Origin: Escherichia phage vB_EcoM_CE1
Strand: one strand, 5' to 3'
Length of the DNA stretch: 64,000 nucleotides
Sequence record: ON229909.1
This document shows, one piece after another, positions 8,779-39,918 of this stretch (position 1 is its first letter; each line of letters starts with the position of its first letter). Position numbers and translations under genes: made by a program. The notes beneath the pieces are model-generated. The model saw only the letters and a list, made by a program, of their open reading frames with translations. It had not been told where the DNA came from and did not search any database.

Positions 8779-11700
8779 TTATTCAACCCATTCAAATTTA
8801 ACCGTTTTATTCACTGGGTCAGGAATAATGCGAACATTACCAATTCGTAAGAAATCACGAATAGTAAGATTCCCCATTATAGCATTATCAGATGGTAAAG
8901 CACCAATATCAGATGGCTGAGGAGGGTTACCCCCATCAAATACCTGAACAAAACTTGACCAAGAGTTTTTGGTTTTCTGCCATGTACGCGTCCAGCGAGT
9001 GGTGCGCGCTTCTGGGGTCGTTGGATAAGTAATCCAATCTTGGTAAAGCGAATCGAGTGTGTTACCAAACTGAGTCAACGTACCAGGAGATTTAACCTCT
9101 TCGCCGCGTTCTAAGTATGGAAGCCCAGTCACTTCATTAGTTTTTTCAACCATCTTAAAATAACCCGGGAACTGGTTATAAGTGGCTGAATCATTAATAT
9201 CGATTGACCAGAATCCTACAGTATCAGATGTTGGCGCACGAGTATATAAATCAGAGGTTTTAGTACCCTGAGAACGAATTCTCGAGTTGACAGTTAAACC
9301 ACCTGAAGTTATAGTAGCACCTTTGGCAATAATTAAGCTTTCACCAATTGTAACCTGACCAGATTGATTATTAATTGATAATGGACGTAATCCATTAAAT
9401 CCACCAGTCTGATCGCCAGATGCAGTAAGCATAAAATAGGTGTTAGCAGCATCATTACGAATAAAGAATCCATAATCACCGTTTATTGCTCTAAAAGCAT
9501 TCGATGATTTACTGATAAATTCGCCATTAGCAGTAACTGAACTACCGAATGTTGCAACGCCATTCGCATTCAAAGAACCTAAAGCATTCACATTTATTGG
9601 CATTACAGTACCATTAATGCTAAATGCTATATTACCATCTTTATCGCGTTGAGAATAAAAGTGATAAGATGTTTCATCACTAACTTCAAATACGGTAGAA
9701 CGTGTTGTATCTGATCCCCCACTAAATTGATTCCCCCACACGCTGACTGTCATCGTTTGAGCTGGGTTCGTCCCAGTTTGAGGTCCTTTCTCAAAAATCA
9801 GACGAGTTGCTGTTCCAGTATTAGAAATGGTTAGTGTACTATTTGCTGAAACTGATCCACCAAACGTAGCAGTACTAGATGATACAAGAGGGGCACTCAG
9901 ATTCGTTTGTTGGGTTAAGGTTAGTGAACCATTAACCGTTTGTGCAATATCCCTACGAATGAACTGAGATGAATCTAGACCATCCAGTAAATTACTATCT
10001 ACAGCTTTTGCTTTTAATGGCAAATAATTTGCTAATACACGGTTTAATTCATATGGCGATACTGCATAGCTATTTTTCTCGTATAATTCTAATGACTGTG
10101 TTGAACCTACCGTATCATTACCAACGAATGTAATTGAACCAGATGAAGTTTTAACAAAACCTCTTACCAGGGTAGTAGCTGCCCAAGTAGGTTCACTCTG
10201 CACAATCCATTTTAAATTTTTTGGAGATACAGCAGTATTTGCTGACGTTCCAGCTACAGTTTCAGACTGAGTTGCAACTTTAATAACACCTTCCTGCGAT
10301 TCGGTAGATTTAGTACCTAAAAGCTTTTTAGGAGTTATTAAAACATTATCCAATGTTCCTGCAGCAGCTTCAACTTGTGTAGCTACACGAAGTGTACCAC
10401 GTTGTGTCTCATTTGCTTCAAGAATATTAAGGGTATAATGGTCCCAGAGAGTTCCTGATTCAACTAATCCAGATAGAGCAACAACAGAAGTACGATCAGT
10501 ACTATTAAATCTGGTTTTAATTTTTAATGGTGTAGAGATACGAGTATCGTCGACGCCTGCGTCGAATTCAACTTGCGTAGCAATTTCAGCTATACCACTT
10601 AAACTTTCAGTTGCTATACGGTCATTTAAAGTTTTCGGAGTGACTGCACGAGTATAATCAGTTCCTGTATTAACTTCACTTTGCGTAGCAATTTCAATTA
10701 AACCAATTCTTGCATCAGTTGATGTCTTTTTATGTAACGTTTCTGGCGTTACAACCGCATTTGCCCATCCTTCTTGGCTTTGTCCAGCAATTACTTCACT
10801 TTCAACTGCTAAAATTACTGCACCTTGCTGTGTTGGAGTAGCTTTATACTGATCTAAAGCTTTAGGCGAAACAACTAAATTATCAGTGTTTTTATTATAA
10901 ACATTCGTACCATTTAATTCACGGCTAGAAGCTGGAGTAGCACCTGCAGTAGATACAAAGGTTACAATACCAGATAATGATTCAGAACCTTGACGAGCTT
11001 GAAGCTTTTTAGGAGTGATGATTGTAGTATCATCAGTACCTGCGTTAGTTTCTTGCTGCGTAGCAATTTCAGCAACACCTCTACGAGTTTCTGTAGCAGT
11101 TCTTTCATTCAGCTTTTTAGGAGTGATGATAATATCATCAGCAAAAGAGAATGTAGTGTCCTGGTTCACTTGGGCAGTAGTTGCTATTCTTGCGATACCT
11201 CTACGAGTTTCTGTAGCAGTACGGTTAGCTAATGTTTCTGGTGTAATTGCTAATTCTTTTTGTGGAGAATTTTCTAAATCAGCATTAGCTTGAGCTTGTG
11301 TAGCTAAAGCAATTACGCCTAATCTTGCTCTAGTAGAATCATTTAAAGAATCAACTCTTTCTACAGTTGGCACGTTTTGTTGTACAACCCAGTATTTTCC
11401 ATCAGAATCTTCTATATAAGCAAGCTCTAAAACTGGAACATAATTAGTTTCACCATTAAAAACTAATTCTTGAACTGTAACCCATTTAGTTTCAGGCGGA
11501 TATTCTGAGCGTTTTGGGAATTGCAGCAATTGAACTGAAGAAGCAATTTTATCTTCACCGGCAGCTTTGATTTTAACTGTGTGTCCTTTTCTCATGTAAT
11601 TCATGGAAATTTTAACAGTATCACCAACAGAAATATCAGTCGGAAGCTGAAGTTCAATTGTCTGAGTTGTTCCGTTATTCGCACCAAATACCATAACTTC

Positions 11701-22738: not shown

Positions 22739-23042
22739 AAAATGCGCCTTTAAACGGTAACGTTTATCGAAAACTCCTTTAATTGCTGGAAAGTCCTTTA
22801 TAGGAAAACTAGCAGCCAAGGTTTTGCTTGCACCTTTAATTAGTATAATATAAATGATTATACTTTTAAGAGGATGCACAATTGCAAAGCAAGGTTCAAC
22901 GACTAGTCTTCGGACGTAGGGTCAAGCGACTCGAAATGGGGAGAATCCCTCTGGGATTGTGATATAGTCTGGTCTGCATAGTAATATGTAGCAGTTCATA
23001 AGAGAACGGGTTGAGAATTAGCGAGCTCAATCGAACATAACG
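22739..23042 (+). ncRNA. group I intron in nrdB, ORF-less
   Basis: 304-nt interruption at the nrdB intron site; 5' exon ends in U with GCGU complementary to intronic GCGC (P1); intron ends ...CGAACATAACG (terminal G); splicing restores a TGT Cys codon and frame; no ORF over 60 codons. Confidence 0.65.
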
Positions 23043-23545
23043 GTACCTTTAACTTCCATAAGAACATGGAAATCATGGAAGGTAATGCCAAGATTATGAA
23101 GTTCATTGCACGTGATGAGCAGCTTCACCTTAAAGGCACCCAATATATTATTCGTCAACTTCAACTTGGCACTGATGGTGATGAATGGGTTAAAATTGCT
23201 CAAGAGTGTGAACAAGAAGCAGTTGATATTTTCATGGAAGTTAACCGCCAAGAAAAAGACTGGGCAGTTCATTTATTTAAAGATGGCGATGTTCCTGGAT
23301 TAAATACAAATAGCATGTGGAGCTTTATTGATTACTTAACTGTATCTCGTATGAAACAGTGTGGTCTTCCATGCCCAATTACCGATGCTCCGGTTAAACA
23401 CCCATATCCTTGGATTCGTGAATATCTTAATTCTGATAATGTTCAATCCGCGCCACAAGAAGTAGAACTGTCATCTTACCTTGTTGCACAGATTGATAAT
23501 GATGTTGATGATAAAGTTATGATGAGTTTTAAAAAATACTTTTAA
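23043..23545 (+). CDS. nrdB: ribonucleotide reductase small subunit, exon 2
   Basis: in frame with track ORF 23066..23545 (MEGNAKIMKFIARDEQLHL...); total about 392 aa. Confidence 0.8.
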
Positions 23546-23550
23546 GGAGT

Positions 23551-23564
23551 GGGCCGCAAGGCCC
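23551..23564 (+). other. GCAA-tetraloop hairpin between nrdB and denA
   Basis: GGGCC-GCAA-GGCCC immediately after nrdB stop. Confidence 0.4.
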
Positions 23565-23572
23565 ATTTTATT

Positions 23573-25160
<1,588 letters not shown>

Positions 25161-25163
25161 GCT

Positions 25164-25221
25164 GTTTACAAGTCCCTCGTGTTGTGTTATAGTAGTCTTA
25201 CTGACATAACACGAGGACTTT
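25164..25221 (+). promoter_or_regulatory. early-type promoter embedded in an RBS-sequestering hairpin, upstream of alc
   Basis: GTTTAC, 17 nt, TTATAG/TATAGT; inverted repeat CCTCGTGTT...AACACGAGG covers the GAGGA SD; 48-nt block repeated at 38573. Confidence 0.5.
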
Positions 25222-25224
25222 ATG

Positions 25225-25728
25225 ATGGATTTACAACTTATTACTACTGAGATGGTCGTTGAAGCATACGGTGATACTACAGATGGGATTTCTGTATTCA
25301 AAGGAAATCGTCGAGTTGGATATATCACCGATCTTAAGAAAGATTTAGCTAAGCAAGTCAAGCGGAAAACGACCATTAAAGAATATCGAAATCGTCGTCT
25401 TGAGCAAGCCCGTGATATGCTTCCTGATGCGGTTGAAGAGATGAAAGTCTTTTTAGAAAATCAGCTTGCGAAATACGATTGTGATGTGTTCATTAATCAG
25501 ACTCAACCTAATGTTCACATTAATAGCTGTAAATGCTATATCATCGTTAATCCTTTGACGGGAAAACATCGTCTTGGAATCAGTAATCCAAATCGTAGCG
25601 CATCAGATATGGCAGAAGATGTTGAGGCATGCTTTAAAATTTCTAAATCTCCAGCTGAACATCATATTTTAATTAACGGTCTTTCTCAAGACGATATTGT
25701 AGAGGTTATTAAAACTTTATGCATGTAA
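25225..25728 (+). CDS. alc: Alc transcription terminator/unfolding of host nucleoid
   Basis: 167 aa from MDLQLITTEMVVEAYGDTTDG...; matches T4 Alc. Confidence 0.9.
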   Translation: MDLQLITTEMVVEAYGDTTDGISVFKGNRRVGYITDLKKDLAKQVKRKTTIKEYRNRRLEQARDMLPDAVEEMKVFLENQLAKYDCDVFINQTQPNVHINSCKCYIIVNPLTGKHRLGISNPNRSASDMAEDVEACFKISKSPAEHHILINGLSQDDIVEVIKTLCM

Positions 25729-26072
25729 GTAATTTTACAGCTGGATTGCTATTACTTGTAATAGCATTTGGCGGAACATCTATTATTTTAAAAAATAAGG
25801 TAGAAAGATTAGAAACATCGGTTACTGAAATTACAAAAACGGCCAATGAAAACGCCTTAGCATTAAATAATTTGCGAATTCAGTATAATTATATTGATGC
25901 GATGAATAATAAAAATCGTGAGGCAATTGCTGCTATTGAGCGTGAAAATGAAAAACTGCGCAAAGACGCAAAGAAGGCGGATGTGGTGGTTCATAAGCCA
26001 GGATTGGTTGAAAAACAAATCAACAACTCCTTCAACAAGTTCGCAGAAGACATCCAGGACCTTTCTAAATGA
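25719..26072 (+). CDS. pseT.3: i-spanin (Rz-like)
   Basis: 117 aa, N-terminal TMD (TAGLLLLVIAFGGTSIIL) then coiled-coil region; overlaps alc stop. Confidence 0.8.
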   Translation: MHVSNFTAGLLLLVIAFGGTSIILKNKVERLETSVTEITKTANENALALNNLRIQYNYIDAMNNKNREAIAAIERENEKLRKDAKKADVVVHKPGLVEKQINNSFNKFAEDIQDLSK

Positions 26073-26368
26073 TTAAACTATCAGCAGTAATATTATCTAT
26101 TGGTCTTCTAGTTGGTTGTTCGACAAAGCCTCTAGAAGTAAAGAAAGAAACAGTTCATCCTAATTGGCCTGTACAAATAAAGTCATATGATGAAGCTAAA
26201 CTATCTTGGCAAGTTAAAGTTATTGATGGTAAAGCTTGGGTCGGTATGCCATTTGAAGATTCCCAGGAATTTCGCATTTGGCTTAATGATGTAAAACGAT
26301 ATGTACATGATCAGAAAACTATGATATGTTATTATCGTCAAGAGTTAAAAGAGGATAAATGCAAATGA
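26069..26368 (+). CDS. pseT.2: o-spanin lipoprotein (Rz1-like)
   Basis: 99 aa, signal peptide with lipobox LLVGC; ATGA overlap with i-spanin. Confidence 0.8.
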   Translation: MIKLSAVILSIGLLVGCSTKPLEVKKETVHPNWPVQIKSYDEAKLSWQVKVIDGKAWVGMPFEDSQEFRIWLNDVKRYVHDQKTMICYYRQELKEDKCK

Positions 26369-26591
26369 TTTCATGGCATCAATTTGAACATCTCAAAGGA
26401 TTGATTTATGAATCCGAGATGGCTGCAATGATTTATGGACGCCAGATTCAACGGTTAGAATCTTTACCTCCAACTAATGATGTTTTATTAGCTCAATCAC
26501 GTGCTAATCTCAAAAATGAATATCAAAATAAGTGGGGTAAAGCATCTAAAGACCTGCATGATTATATTCAATCATTGGTTGAGAAAAATAA

Positions 26592-28191: not shown

Positions 28192-28467
28192 ATGTTTCCG
28201 ACTTACTCTAAAATCGTAGAAGTAGTGTTTAGCCAAATTATCGCTAATAACATGTTTGAAAAGCTTGATAATGCAGCTGAACTTCGAATCCACGCTCAAG
28301 TGACTCATGTATTGAACGCTTTGCTTCCAGACCAAGTGGATTCTATTGCAATTACGCTGTATCCAGGTTCCGCGCATATCATTGTCGTATTCGGTCTTGA
28401 TGCTGAGCTAGTCATCAAAGGCGATATTCGCTTTGAATCACAGACATCAGAATTCAAAGCAATTTAA
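28192..28467 (+). CDS. hypothetical protein
   Basis: 91-aa ORF. Confidence 0.5.
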   Translation: MFPTYSKIVEVVFSQIIANNMFEKLDNAAELRIHAQVTHVLNALLPDQVDSIAITLYPGSAHIIVVFGLDAELVIKGDIRFESQTSEFKAI

Positions 28468-28469
28468 TT

Positions 28470-28499
28470 GTTTACAACATGGTAGAGTTGTGATATTAT
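28470..28499 (+). promoter_or_regulatory. early-type promoter
   Basis: GTTTAC, 18 nt, TATTAT; flanking inverted repeat GGTAGAG/CTCTACC. Confidence 0.4.
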
Positions 28500-28529
28500 A
28501 GCTCTACCAAAACAAATGAGGAAATAGAA

Positions 28530-31752: not shown

Positions 31753-31754
31753 TT

Positions 31755-31783
31755 GTTTACTTTGGTACAGGATATGATATTAT
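31755..31783 (+). promoter_or_regulatory. early-type promoter
   Basis: GTTTAC, 17 nt, TATTAT. Confidence 0.45.
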
Positions 31784-31820
31784 ATACCTGTACCGCAATT
31801 AAACATCTCGGAGAATAAAA

Positions 31821-36133: not shown

Positions 36134-36141
36134 TATAAATA
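36134..36141 (+). promoter_or_regulatory. late promoter TATAAATA for alt
   Basis: exact TATAAATA ~24 nt upstream of alt ATG. Confidence 0.45.
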
Positions 36142-36164
36142 GAATAAACACTAGAGAGGATATG

Positions 36165-38213
36165 ATGGAACTAATTACAGAATTATTTGACGAAGATACT
36201 ACTCTTCCAATTACAAACTTAAATCCAAAGAAGAAAATACCGCAAATTTTTTCAGTTCATGTTGATGACGCAATTGAACAACCAGGCTTTCGTTTATGTA
36301 CCTATACATCTGGAGGTGATACTAATCGTGATTTAAAGATGGGCGATAAAATGATGCATATTGTTCCTTTTACATTAACCGCTAAAGGTTCAATTGCTAA
36401 ATTGAAAGGTCTTGGTCCAAGCCCAATTAATTATATCAATTCAGTTTTTACTGTTGCAATGCAAACAATGCGTCAGTATAAAATTGATGCTTGTATGCTT
36501 CGTATTCTTAAGTCTAAAACCGCTGGTCAAGCTCGACAAATTCAAGTTATTGCTGATAGACTTATCCGTAGTCGTTCAGGTGGCAGATACGTCCTTCTTA
36601 AGGAACTCTGGGATTATGATAAAAAGTATGCATATATTCTTATACATCGCAAAAATGTATCACTAGAAGACATTCCAGGGGTTCCGGAAATTAGTACCGA
36701 GCTCTTTACTAAGGTTGAATCGAAGGTCGGTGATGTTTATATCAATAAAGATACTGGAGCTCAAGTAACTAAAAATGAGGCAATTGCAGCATCTATTGCA
36801 CAAGAAAATGATAAACGTTCTGACCAAGCTGTAATCGTTAAAGTTAAAATTTCCCGTAGAGCAATTGCACAAAGTCAGTCATTGGAATCTTCTAGATTTG
36901 AAACACCAATGTTTCAAAAATTTGAGGCTTCAGCAGCAGAATTAAATAAACCCGCCGACGCGCCTTTAATTTCTGATGCTAACGAATTAACCGTTATTTC
37001 TACTTCAGGATTTGCATTAGAGAATGCTCTTAATAGTGTTACAGCTGGAATGGCATTCAGAGAAGCTTCTATAATTCCTGAAGATAAAGAATCTGATGTT
37101 AATGCAGAAATAAAAAATAAAGCTTTAGAAAGATTACGAAAAGAATCTATTACTTCAATAAAAACTTTAGAAACTATTGCTTCTATAGTCGATGATACTT
37201 TAGAAAAATATAAAAGTGCTTGGTTAGAAAGAAATATTAGCAAGCATTCGCATTTAAATCAAGATGCTGCAAATGAGTTAGTGCAAAATTCTTGGAATGC
37301 AATAAAAACAAAGATTATTCGAAGAGAATTACGTGGATATGCTCTTACCGTTGGATGGTCATTGCATTCTATAGTCGAAAATAAAGATTCATCTAAATAC
37401 ACACCGGCTCAAAAACGCGGAATTCGTGAATATGTGGGTTCAGGATATGTAGACATGAATAATGCTCTTTTGGGATTATATAATCCAGATGAGCGTACAA
37501 GTATTTTGACAGCACCCGAAATAGAACAAGCCATCGATAATTTAGATTCAGCCTTTAAAAATGGTGATCGATTGCCAAAAGGTATTACTTTATATCGTTC
37601 GCAACGAATGTTACCTTCAATATATGAAGCATTGGTAAAAAATCGAGTTTTTTATTTTAGAAACTTTGTGTCAACATCATTATATCCAAATATTTTTGGT
37701 ACTTGGATGACTGATTCATCTATAGGTGTTTTACCAGACGAAAAGCGTCTAAGTGTTTCTATTGATAAAACTGATGAAGGGCTTGTTAATTCTAGCGATA
37801 ATTTAGTCGGAATTGGATGGGTTATTACTGGGGCTGATAAGGTCAATGTTGTTTTACCCGGTGGAAGTTTAGCGCCTTCAAATGAAATGGAAGTCATTTT
37901 GCCACGTGGATTAATGGTCAAAGTTAATAAAATAACCGATGCATCTTACAACGATGGAACAGTTAGAACTAACAACAAGCTTATTCAAGCTGAAGTTATG
38001 ACTACAGAAGAACTCACCGAATCGGCAATTTATGACGGTGACCGTTTAATGGAAACTGGTGAATTGGTTACAATAACAGGTGATATAGAAGATAGAGTTG
38101 ACTTTGCATCATTTGTTTCATCAAATGTTAAACAGAAAGTAGAATCATCTCTTGGAATTATTGCGTCTTGCATAGATATTGCAAACATGCCTTACAAGTT
38201 CGTTCAAGGATAA
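36165..38213 (+). CDS. alt: Alt ADP-ribosyltransferase (packaged)
   Basis: 682 aa from MELITELFDEDTTLPITNLNPKKKIPQIF...; matches T4 Alt. Confidence 0.95.
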   Translation: MELITELFDEDTTLPITNLNPKKKIPQIFSVHVDDAIEQPGFRLCTYTSGGDTNRDLKMGDKMMHIVPFTLTAKGSIAKLKGLGPSPINYINSVFTVAMQTMRQYKIDACMLRILKSKTAGQARQIQVIADRLIRSRSGGRYVLLKELWDYDKKYAYILIHRKNVSLEDIPGVPEISTELFTKVESKVGDVYINKDTGAQVTKNEAIAASIAQENDKRSDQAVIVKVKISRRAIAQSQSLESSRFETPMFQKFEASAAELNKPADAPLISDANELTVISTSGFALENALNSVTAGMAFREASIIPEDKESDVNAEIKNKALERLRKESITSIKTLETIASIVDDTLEKYKSAWLERNISKHSHLNQDAANELVQNSWNAIKTKIIRRELRGYALTVGWSLHSIVENKDSSKYTPAQKRGIREYVGSGYVDMNNALLGLYNPDERTSILTAPEIEQAIDNLDSAFKNGDRLPKGITLYRSQRMLPSIYEALVKNRVFYFRNFVSTSLYPNIFGTWMTDSSIGVLPDEKRLSVSIDKTDEGLVNSSDNLVGIGWVITGADKVNVVLPGGSLAPSNEMEVILPRGLMVKVNKITDASYNDGTVRTNNKLIQAEVMTTEELTESAIYDGDRLMETGELVTITGDIEDRVDFASFVSSNVKQKVESSLGIIASCIDIANMPYKFVQG

Positions 38214-38216
38214 ATC

Positions 38217-38565
38217 ATGGAACTTATTACATAATTATTTGACGGCGCTTCGGCGCCGGTTGTTAACTTAAATCCTAAGCATAAAATACCGCAAATTTTT
38301 GCTATTCAAGCCGGCGAAGAAAGCGTGCTTCCTGGATTTAGATTTTGTACATACACCTCTGGCGGTGATACAGATAAAACGTTAAACCAGGCGACAAAAT
38401 GATGCATATCGTAATGATAGGTGTTAATGAGAAACTATCATTAGTTAAGCTTAAAAACTTGGGTGGAAATCCAATTGGTGTCATTAATGCTGTTTTGATA
38501 CTGCTCTTCAAACAATGAAACAGTATAAAATCGACGCATGCCTATTACGCGTACTAAAAAGTTCA
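38217..38565 (+). pseudogene. degenerate duplicate of the alt 5' region
   Basis: starts ATGGAACTTATTACATAA (MELIT then stop); downstream frames encode LFDGASAPVVNLNPKHKIPQIF, GFRFCTYTSGGDT, MMHIV, KQYKIDACLLRVLK, all alignable to Alt residues 1-125 but broken by a stop and frameshifts. Confidence 0.7.
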
Positions 38566-38572
38566 AAATGTA

Positions 38573-38633
38573 GTTTACAAGTCCCTCGTGTTGTGTTATA
38601 GTAGTCTTACTGACATAACATGAGGAACACAAA
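38573..38633 (+). promoter_or_regulatory. second copy of the 48-nt early promoter/hairpin block
   Basis: 48 nt identical to 25164..25211, followed by GAGGAA SD and ATG at 38634. Confidence 0.5.
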
Positions 38634-38924
38634 ATGAAATCTTCTTTACGCTTTTTAGGTCAAGAACTTGTAGTTGAAGGCGTTATTCCTGCTGATAATG
38701 CTTTTAATGAAGCAGTTTATGATGAATTTATCAAAATTTTCGGAACAGATAAAAAGTTTGGAATTTTTCCTTCTGAAAATTTTTCAAAGCCAGAACAGAC
38801 TGAAAGTATTTTCCAAGGTGTAGTAACAGGCAAATTTGAGTCAGAAGCTCCGGTAAAAATTGAAGTTTATATTGAAGACAGTTTAGTTGCTTCAGTTGCT
38901 GCTTTCATTTCATTCCGTAAATAA
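38634..38924 (+). CDS. hypothetical protein
   Basis: 96-aa ORF with SD, driven by the duplicated promoter block; followed by a hairpin. Confidence 0.55.
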   Translation: MKSSLRFLGQELVVEGVIPADNAFNEAVYDEFIKIFGTDKKFGIFPSENFSKPEQTESIFQGVVTGKFESEAPVKIEVYIEDSLVASVAAFISFRK

Positions 38925-38930
38925 AAATAT

Positions 38931-38948
38931 GGGGACCTTTCGGTCCCC
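38931..38948. terminator. bidirectional hairpin between convergent ORF 38634 and gene 54
   Basis: GGGGACC-UUUC-GGUCCCC. Confidence 0.5.
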
Positions 38949-38952
38949 ATTG

Positions 38953-39918
38953 TTATATTGCTCCTAATATTTTACTCTGCGAATTGACAATCCCTGTCAT
39001 AGTATTAATGTTTGAAATGCTTCCTGAGGTTCCTCCTAGTCTACTAAGTCGTGAAAGCGAATTAGATAGTCCAGTAACACCTCCACTATTTCCGAGAACG
39101 CTTTGAATGCCATTTATAGCAGCAGATTCAAGCCATTCAAGCGCAGCTTGTCTATCAACTGCTCCAGCCTGCATGACTCTATACGCAAAAGTAACATCAA
39201 ATGTAGTTATTTGGTTATCTCCATCATATGATAACTCAGGAGCGCTCACTGATATCGGAATGCATCCGGTGAACATCACCGCAGTATGAGGCAATCCATT
39301 ACGAGCATGAAGATTAACCTGAATGTCTGCTTCAACATCTTGCGGCAAAGCACGTAATCCAGTTACTGGGTCTTGAACAGCGTTAACCCAGTCTTGCATC
39401 GCACGATAATTACAAGCTTCTGAATCCATTCTAAATGAAATAACCAAAGGGTCTAATTCTCTCCCAGTTATACGAATATTAGGAGAATTATAGTTCCAGT
39501 CAGTTTCATAGGATAATCTATTCTCTGGCATTTTTACAGAGTATATCATCAATCCAGATGAGTTATATGCCATGTTAAAGAAGTCAATTAAATATGTACC
39601 AACTGTGAATGAGCCTAATAAACTTTGAACTGTACGTTGACTCATGGCACCAATAAGATATTTACTAACCCCTGATTTTCTTATCAGTTTTTGTGTGCCA
39701 GCAGTAATTAGCGTGGTAATTCCCTGATTAATATCGCCTTGAGTCAATCCTAACCAATTTGAATTTAGGCCCAAGTTATTATAAGAAAAGTTGCTAATTG
39801 AACTTATCAACGAAGAGCTTTTAGTTGATGGAGTTGTTGCAAAAACGCAGCTAAACATATTATTACGTTGGAAATCTGCGTTTATTGCTTGATTATTAAA
39901 TTCCTCTAAAGAATACAT
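38953..39918 (-). CDS. 54: gp54 baseplate tail tube initiator
   Basis: 321 aa; synteny 54-48-29-28-27-51. Confidence 0.9.
   Translation of the reverse strand: MYSLEEFNNQAINADFQRNNMFSCVFATTPSTKSSSLISSISNFSYNNLGLNSNWLGLTQGDINQGITTLITAGTQKLIRKSGVSKYLIGAMSQRTVQSLLGSFTVGTYLIDFFNMAYNSSGLMIYSVKMPENRLSYETDWNYNSPNIRITGRELDPLVISFRMDSEACNYRAMQDWVNAVQDPVTGLRALPQDVEADIQVNLHARNGLPHTAVMFTGCIPISVSAPELSYDGDNQITTFDVTFAYRVMQAGAVDRQAALEWLESAAINGIQSVLGNSGGVTGLSNSLSRLSRLGGTSGSISNINTMTGIVNSQSKILGAI

Follow-up and report, generated by a model that had tools for sequence, protein, structure and literature searches.

A promoter spacer that can pair with its own leader: a candidate early-only gate on alc translation in T4-like phages

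The early genes of phage T4 lie in long polycistronic units that are transcribed again from middle and late promoters. The immediate-early promoters themselves fall silent within minutes of infection, in a way that is incompletely understood. The intergenic region between rnlA and alc raises the question of how translation of an immediate-early gene could follow its own promoter when the gene is also carried on RNA started further upstream. This region is considered here in a stretch of 64,000 nucleotides (nt) from Escherichia phage vB_EcoM_CE1 (record ON229909.1), referred to as the window. The 17-nt spacer of the alc early promoter would be the reverse complement of the gene's own leader through the Shine-Dalgarno sequence (SD), and the region is probably a self-insulating early-promoter cassette that restricts alc translation to transcripts started at this promoter. 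The argument depends on the following features.

24036 to 25160, plus strand: rnlA (RNA ligase 1, gp63), from the list of open reading frames (ORFs), upstream of alc, with its stop TAA at 25158-25160
25164 to 25170, plus strand: -35 element GTTTACA of a T4-type early (sigma-70) promoter, from the consensus scan
25170 to 25194, plus strand: 5' strand of the hairpin in the minimum free energy (MFE) structures, holding the whole 17-nt spacer (25171-25187) plus the -10
25175 to 25178, plus strand: anti-SD CCUC, inside the hairpin 5' strand
25185 to 25193, plus strand: extended -10, TGtTATAGT (TATAGT at 25188-25193), from the consensus scan
25199 to 25220, plus strand: 3' strand of the hairpin in the MFE structures, nearly the whole predicted leader
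25200, plus strand: predicted transcription start A25200, placed from promoter geometry, at about T4 136300
25213 to 25217, plus strand: SD of alc, GAGGA, in the 3' arm
25222 to 25728, plus strand: alc (inhibitor of host transcription), with tandem AUGs at 25222 and 25225

The alc promoter reads GTTTACA-N17-TGtTATAGT, a 10/12 match with TG to the consensus TTTACA-17-TATAGT, and is among the five best early-promoter matches of the window. T4 promoters favour A as the start nucleotide (bioRxiv 10.1101/2024.04.04.588121). Because of this preference and of the promoter geometry, the predicted start is placed at A25200, 7 nt past the -10 and downstream of the entire 5' strand of the hairpin. The GTTTACA element is unchanged in all 25 aligned alc leaders in which a hairpin covers the SD, and it is missing in seven of the 55 leaders examined, for instance in Gaprivervirus, Acj133 and phiAS4. 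The late-promoter motif TATAAATA does not occur on the plus strand between 14921 and 30617, so there is none within the alc hairpin.

A preliminary description of this DNA, made from the letters alone, had placed the SD in the 3' arm of a hairpin with the promoter -10 in its loop. Both arms it named are present within 25173-25224, CCTCGTGTT at 25175-25183 and AACACGAGG at 25208-25216, and the GAGGA of the 3' arm is the SD. The -10 does lie between the arms; the interval is 24 nt instead of about 26, and is not an open loop. The whole hairpin is larger than the version first described, with about 22 bp and -26.2 kcal/mol. In the MFE fold, a basal stem joins AAGUCC (25170-75) to GGACUU (25215-20), C25176 is bulged, and the main stem pairs UCGUGUUGUGUU (25177-88) with GACAUAACACGA (25203-14). 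Above it lie an AU internal loop and an apical stem of AGUA (25191-25194) with UACU, closed by a GUCU loop, and the -10 falls in this upper part of the 5' strand. The entire 17-nt spacer thus pairs with the entire predicted leader, from +1 to 1 nt short of the first AUG, in a spacer:leader duplex of -22.6 kcal/mol.

The alc hairpin is real and far from chance. It ranks first of 31,972 sliding 56-nt folds on both strands (mean -7.26, standard deviation (sd) 3.49 kcal/mol), and none of 200 dinucleotide shuffles of 25173-25224 folds as well (z = -6.7). No U-tract lies 3' of the hairpin, the stem being followed by UAUGAUGG at alc and by ACACAAAAUG at alt.-3, the second gene with this arrangement, and the terminator scan does not call the alc hairpin. 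An intrinsic (Rho-independent) terminator was ruled out, as no U-tract follows the stem in any lineage with a covered SD. An RNase III site was also considered: the Tequatrovirus stem of about 22 bp would be long enough, and the stems of 9-17 bp with large loops in other lineages make this unlikely as a conserved function. As for the idea of a RegB target, the alc SD of the window, GAGGA, does not contain GGAG. A search of 24900-25500 against Rfam returned two chance-level matches only, at 19 bits against gathering scores of 50 and 135.

Folding of long and short leaders, suggested in the preliminary description as a check, gives the predicted contrast. In partition-function folding, the mean unpaired probability of the alc SD is 0.45 on RNA starting at A25200 and 0.003 or 0.002 on readthrough RNA of 200 or 400 nt. 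The short leader has less structure than shuffled versions of itself (z = +1.9). For 222 T4 gene starts, an occlusion index was also computed: the context from -75 to +20 was folded, and the unpaired probability was averaged over positions -13 to -5. With this index, alc is the most occluded start of all (0.009; median 0.45) and regB the second. The index is crude in its fixed window: of the documented T4 cases of SD hairpins, gene 49 ranks fifth and e 25th, and I-TevI (60th) and soc (193rd) are not recovered; I-TevII ranks 24th.

The layout is conserved well beyond the window. The rnlA-alc junctions of 12 genera and 44 IMG/VR loci were compared, and in nine of the 12 genera alc follows rnlA after 57-64 nt, with GTTTACA-N16-18-TAnnnT in the spacer between them. 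Three junctions depart from this, those of Gaprivervirus SP18 with 70 nt, of phiAS4 with 76 nt, and of Acj133, which has another upstream gene. In at least 10 Straboviridae lineages the anti-SD comes directly after the -35, the -10 and the predicted +1 lie between the arms, and the SD is in the 3' arm; the SD lies inside the 3' arm in 28 of 38 distinct leaders. Lineages that share this layout differ in the sequence of their arms, with compensatory changes, as follows.

Tequatrovirus: 5' arm CCTCGTGTT, 3' arm AACACGAGG
Gelderlandvirus: 5' arm TCTCCGTTT, 3' arm AAACGGAGA
Karamvirus: 5' arm TCTCCATTTGGTT, 3' arm AACCAAATGGAGA
Kagamiyamavirus: 5' arm TCCTCATTTTGTTG, 3' arm CAACAAAATGAGGA
Klebsiella phages: 5' arm TCCTCATCAG, 3' arm CTGATGAGGA
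Bragavirus: 5' arm ACCTCTCATTTT or CCCTCTCGTTTT, with matching 3' arms
Dhakavirus: 5' arm TCTCCTCAT, 3' arm ATGAGGAGA
CIP9-like phages: 5' arm TCCCC, 3' arm GGGGA
L042/44: 5' arm CCTCGTTTGTT, 3' arm AACAAACGAGG
L050: its own variant of the arms

The SD and the anti-SD covary between lineages, as GGAGA/TCTCC, GAGGA/TCCTC and GGGGA/TCCCC. The pairing was also assessed by comparing cognate with non-cognate duplexes, an alignment-free and non-circular measure. Cognate spacer:leader duplexes have a mean energy of -13.5 kcal/mol and permuted ones of -8.0 (sd 0.7), none of 20,000 permutations was as good, and in 11 of 17 lineages the best partner of the spacer is its own leader. RNAalifold found no consensus pairs in a MAFFT alignment of the 25 leaders, as the arms of different lineages do not line up in register. 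Pairs were hence counted in an ungapped, in-register subset of nine sequences from four lineages, where 92% of the cells are paired, compared with 37-46% after a shift of the partners by 1-3 columns. Four pairs of this subset change on both sides, two of them within the SD/anti-SD (UA<->CG and CG<->UA).

Within Tequatrovirus, exact-match searches of the phage collection with the four haplotypes of pair 25179:25212 gave G:C in three records, G:U in 257, A:U in 39 and A:C in none, and a pattern scan of IMG/VR for variants of the Tequatrovirus cassette found eight loci. Single copies have extended their stems into their own flank, with AAGUCC/GGACUU at alc and GUUCCUC/GAGGAAC at alt.-3 of phage L063. 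Many lineages have loops of 12-24 nt that hold the -10 and the predicted +1. A hairpin that merely had to be stable would pay dearly for loops of this size, but they are unavoidable if the SD is the target. The covariation of the alc hairpin is strong, and the comparative data are the strongest evidence for the cassette.

Two of the exceptional junctions deserve separate mention. In Gaprivervirus, alc is partly duplicated, with an N-terminal fragment (alcb) followed by alca, at 254-1004 of L007 (Shigella phage SP18) and also in L025, L026 and L055. In Acinetobacter phage 133 (L013, ~450-488), alc follows pseT.2 and not rnlA, and is preceded by AGTCCTCATTGAGCAATCCTTGAGGACTTTTTTATG, a terminator-like hairpin with T6 and the SD in its 3' arm. 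Both arms of AGTCCTCATTGAGCAATCCTTGAGGACTTTTTTATG lie downstream of TATAGT, and the hairpin would form on alc's own transcript as well.

The mechanism proposed for alc would work as follows. A polymerase arriving from upstream (nrdB, denA, rnlA) would copy both strands of the hairpin, and the RNA would fold into about 22 bp that bury the alc SD. On such readthrough RNA, 30S subunits would be blocked from initiating at alc. RNA from alc's own promoter, starting at about A25200 between the two strands, would carry the 3' half only, present an open leader, and be translated. Synthesis of Alc would then track its own immediate-early promoter and not the amount of alc-containing RNA. In T4, the middle promoters PI-TevIII, PnrdB and PnrdA have been mapped upstream of alc (PMC2988021, Table 1), and the terminator scan found no terminator-like site on the plus strand at 23000-25222. 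Because of these promoters and the lack of such a site in between, sources of some readthrough RNA should exist. The folding and comparative data support the idea, put forward in the preliminary description, that readthrough RNA would hide the SD and the promoter's own RNA would expose it.

The window holds the arrangement twice.

38573 to 38626, plus strand: second 54-nt promoter/hairpin/SD cassette, from the repeat search, preceding alt.-3
38634 to 38924, plus strand: alt.-3, downstream of alt and served by the second cassette

That a similar arrangement with one G-U pair precedes the ORF at 38634 had been noticed before and was confirmed: G25179:C25212 becomes G38588:U38621. The relation goes further than the shared layout first seen, as 38573-38626 repeats 25164-25217 directly over 54 nt, with 53/54 identical, and most Tequatrovirus records carry the cassette twice per genome. 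The alt.-3 copy folds with -23.2 kcal/mol, rank 4 in the window. The gene alt, upstream of alt.-3, has the late-promoter motif TATAAATA at 36134-36141, and the cassette would stop late alt transcripts from expressing alt.-3. The CmdTAC escape-mutant literature on alt.-3 concerns C-terminal extensions of the protein and not the leader.

The alt.-3 site adjoins decayed duplicates of alt. Diverged direct repeats of the alt start (36162-36322 and 38214-38371, 74-90% identity) lie downstream of alt and correspond to the decayed duplicates alt.-1/alt.-2 noted in T4; the alt.-1 start here is ATCATGG and not ATGATGG. Between the convergent genes alt.-3 (plus strand) and 54 (minus strand), a strong GC hairpin, GGGGACCUUUCGGUCCCC, occurs at 38909-38964 on both strands. 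With its U-rich flanks on both strands, it probably acts as a bidirectional terminator at the end of the alt/alt.-3 unit.

Among the known systems, the closest in logic are the T4 genes e, soc, 49 and I-TevI, where SD hairpins curb translation of upstream-initiated RNA, 100-fold in the case of e (PMC3014915). It is established that initiation drops steeply when the SD is held in a strong helix. The preliminary description was correct in stating that promoter-selective translation is known for a few T4 genes, these four being the ones documented (PMC3014915). As is predicted for alc, the SD and/or AUG lies in a helix on upstream transcripts and the RNA of the inner promoter lacks the 5' strand, and these cases, too, come from T4 with its dense polycistronic context. 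The inner promoter of these genes is, however, a late one (gp55, TATAAATA) and gives late-only translation, whereas that of alc is a sigma-70 early promoter. In alc, moreover, the 5' strand is the promoter's own spacer, and the predicted effect is the mirror image, early-only. Because an early promoter takes the place of the late one, the alc element is best modelled as a variant of this family, not as a member, with its temporal sign apparently reversed. Translational control in T4 was reviewed in 2010 with no mention of alc among the cases listed (PMC3014915), and the older T4 literature may hold an earlier mention of the alc hairpin.

The element also belongs to the realm of the PeSLs, or promoter-early stem-loops (Arbiol 2010; Comeau 2014), repeated intergenic cassettes that likewise combine a strong early promoter, a stem-loop, an SD and a start codon. 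The preliminary description had missed that the alc element is a repeated cassette of this wider, already described class. The alc promoter fits the PST/T4 consensus TTTACW-N17-TAYWAT (PMC4122927), except for a G as the fifth base of the -10. In RB49 and phi1, PeSL stem-loops most commonly overlap the -10 or sit in the interval from the -35 to it (PMC2839356), whereas those of PST/T4 have been placed just upstream of the promoter (PMC4122927), unlike that of alc. PeSL stem-loops have been read as terminators or attenuators and recombination sites, whereas in alc the 3' arm is the leader with its SD; a count of the word 'translation' in the main text gives 0 for each of the two PeSL papers. PeSLs are further tied to indels, gene shuffling and hyperplastic regions, whereas the alc cassette occupies a junction of conserved synteny.

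Four of the five best early-promoter matches of the window are enclosed by strong hairpins, and a similar picture emerges from the whole T4 genome, where 40 early-promoter-like sites were scored with a cut-off of -12 kcal/mol for a duplex covering the SD. Seven of them pass (ndd.4, alc, alt.-3, denV, regB, nrdC.8 and motB.2), and 30.8 is just under the cut-off. The pass rate of non-cognate spacer/leader pairs is 3.9% (permutation p = 5e-5). Duplex energies are between -17 and -21.5 kcal/mol for ndd.4, denV, regB, nrdC.8 and motB.2, and -11.3 kcal/mol for 30.8. Several of these T4 cassettes are near-identical in sequence (AAGACyGTTCyTC..TGGTACTATACAACTATCAACTAC). The positions of the sites in T4 (NC_000866) are as follows.

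166806: ndd.4
65412: denV
62796: regB
53942: nrdC.8
8217: motB.2
130309: 30.8

It can be proposed tentatively, with somewhat less confidence than for alc itself, that a large subclass of PeSLs are translational insulators and not terminators, forming an early-only gate for alc, regB, alt.-3, nrdC.8, ndd.4, motB.2, denV and 30.8 that compensatory evolution would have kept in at least 10 Straboviridae genera. RegB synthesis is tightly confined to the first minutes of infection (PMC3014915), which fits an early-only gate.

Three promoter-embedded hairpins deserve a note of their own. At 28460-28512 (promoter 28471; T4 ~133295, between cd.3 and cd.2), GTTTACA..GGTAGAGTTGTGATATTATAGCTCTACC forms a hairpin of -19.6 kcal/mol that leaves the SD (GAGGA, 28518) uncovered. 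The T4 RefSeq note at Pe133295 reads 'inverted complement of previously reported sequence; corrects the early promoter Pe133295', and the 14-bp loop between the arms had therefore formerly been reported in the opposite orientation. At 31753-31808 (T4 129917, before 30.7), the -10 is enclosed by GGTACAGGATATGATATTATATACCTGTACC with -20.1 kcal/mol, and the SD of 30.7, GGAG, is free about 10 nt past the stem, an example of the hairpins that do not cover the SD. In T4 NC_000866 at ~70340 (promoter 70358, before e.7), the record has an ambiguous base N within the promoter-embedded hairpin TAGGCTNATGATTGAGATATTATGAGCCTA.

Several observations weigh against SD hiding as the role of these hairpins. 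In T4 itself, hairpins that bracket the -10 leave the SD free at 30.7, ipII, mobD.2, dmd, motB, e.7 and cd.2. The alc hairpin of Tegunavirus and Kanagawavirus is tight around the -10 and stops short of the SD, that of Mosigvirus and two other lineages lies wholly within the spacer with the SD unpaired, and in two lineages it is absent. Given the SD-free hairpins of the T4 sites, Tegunavirus and Kanagawavirus, SD occlusion is therefore not the sole selected function of promoter-embedded hairpins. Sense and antisense folds of the 38 distinct leaders are equal (-18.7 against -18.6 kcal/mol, Wilcoxon p = 0.96), and the folding is therefore by itself no proof of a function at the RNA level; in Tequatrovirus alone, G:U pairs favour the sense strand (-24.4 against -15.4 kcal/mol). 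The leader has only about 20 nt, so that geometry alone will often bring any 3' arm downstream of the -10 into contact with the SD. Only 6-11 nt separate the rnlA stop from the 5' arm, and terminating ribosomes might reopen the SD on long RNAs. Lastly, the gain in SD accessibility at alt.-3 is small, 0.15 on the short and 0.11 on the long RNA; in the short RNA, this SD can pair with a UUCUUC of the coding region.

The published reading of PeSLs offers another explanation, in which the hairpin is a terminator or attenuator, or protects the 3' end of the rnlA mRNA, and the overlap with the SD is a by-product of packing everything into about 60 nt. It can draw on the RB49 stem-loop, which lowered a transcriptional fusion to lacZ placed downstream to the same extent as rrnB T1 (PMC2839356), on the frequency in T4 of the tight -10 hairpins just described and their presence before alc in Tegunavirus and Kanagawavirus, and on Gaprivervirus, which in place of a promoter-embedded hairpin has a classical terminator with a T-run after rnlA. 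The lack of a U-tract and the negative terminator scan speak against it, however, and it would leave unexplained the position of the anti-SD right behind the -35, shared by at least 10 lineages, the covariation of SD and anti-SD, and the tolerance of costly loops of 12-24 nt to reach the SD. As the explanation of the alc element it is thus considered unlikely, although termination and SD hiding are compatible and may coexist. Less probable still is an effect on the DNA level, such as recombination and cassette mobility (PeSL shuffling), a cruciform, or an operator for a dimeric regulator of early promoters. The 54-nt element with its two copies per genome, the equal folding of both strands across lineages, and the recombination and mini-circles of PeSLs (PMC2839356) would all suit it. 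Yet arms that are wholly different between lineages and T4 promoters leave no conserved protein site, and repeat identity accounts for the duplication but not for the compensatory arm changes or the constant involvement of the SD. The rnlA-alc junction, in addition, is syntenic and stable across genera instead of hyperplastic, and the G:U pairs of Tequatrovirus are A:C mismatches on the other strand. A DNA-level role is, on these grounds, very improbable.

Between these two in likelihood, and rather improbable, stands translational coupling, in which the hairpin shuts off independent initiation at alc on long RNAs, but the ribosome ending at the rnlA stop melts the base of the SD/anti-SD stem and Alc is made in proportion to the translation of RnlA. 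Hairpin-gated coupling is well established in polycistronic RNAs, for instance in the RNA coliphages. It resembles the alc case in that pairing with an upstream strand closes the downstream SD and initiation needs this strand removed. It would suit coupling that the first paired nucleotide lies 6 nt from the rnlA stop in many genera (where the TAG overlaps GTTTACA) and 9-11 nt from it in others, and that the SD partners are the 5'-most nucleotides of the 5' arm, within the cover of a terminating ribosome. In Tequatrovirus, on the other hand, the anti-SD CCUC begins 14 nt past the stop, probably beyond the ribosome footprint, and other T4 cases such as regB follow intergenic gaps of like or larger size. 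Coupling in RNA coliphages is opened by translation of the upstream cistron, whereas the conserved feature of alc is a predicted start between the strands, and it is this strong, conserved promoter with its predicted start exactly between the arms that coupling leaves unexplained.

The genes and coordinates used above were assigned as follows. The window belongs to a Tequatrovirus, a T4-like phage, on the strand opposite to the T4 map. About 500 phage records match 24000-26400 at 95-99.7% identity, with rnlA, alc and pseT.3/pseT.2 annotated there. The rnlA label is carried by more than 400 Tequatrovirus records and by T4 NC_000866, and the rnlA start at 24036 was taken from the T4 length of 374 aa. 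Homologues of Alc occur in more than 1,100 phage records; the second AUG (25225) is the annotated alc start in T4 (167 aa). In the T4 RefSeq coordinates, alc is at 135772-136275(-) and rnlA begins at 136340, and the record has no promoter features near alc.

Two further observations concern other parts of the window. The second most stable local fold (-23.6 kcal/mol) is on the minus strand at 23441-23496, inside the 3' end of nrdB and before denA. The stretch 10271-11306 contains degenerate direct repeats of several families, 25-41 nt long, 63-85% identical and spaced 108-723 nt apart, which are probably the mark of a protein-coding segment that is itself repetitive.

If the proposed gate is true, the rule that the spacer is the reverse complement of the leader would be portable, and could serve to insulate genes in engineered phages. 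The PeSLs, repeats that have been catalogued and have stayed functionally vague, would be open to reinterpretation. For the phages themselves, it would mean that toxic or dose-sensitive immediate-early proteins, such as Alc, the terminator of host transcription, or the endoribonuclease RegB, are kept early-only even though the RNA that encodes them persists.

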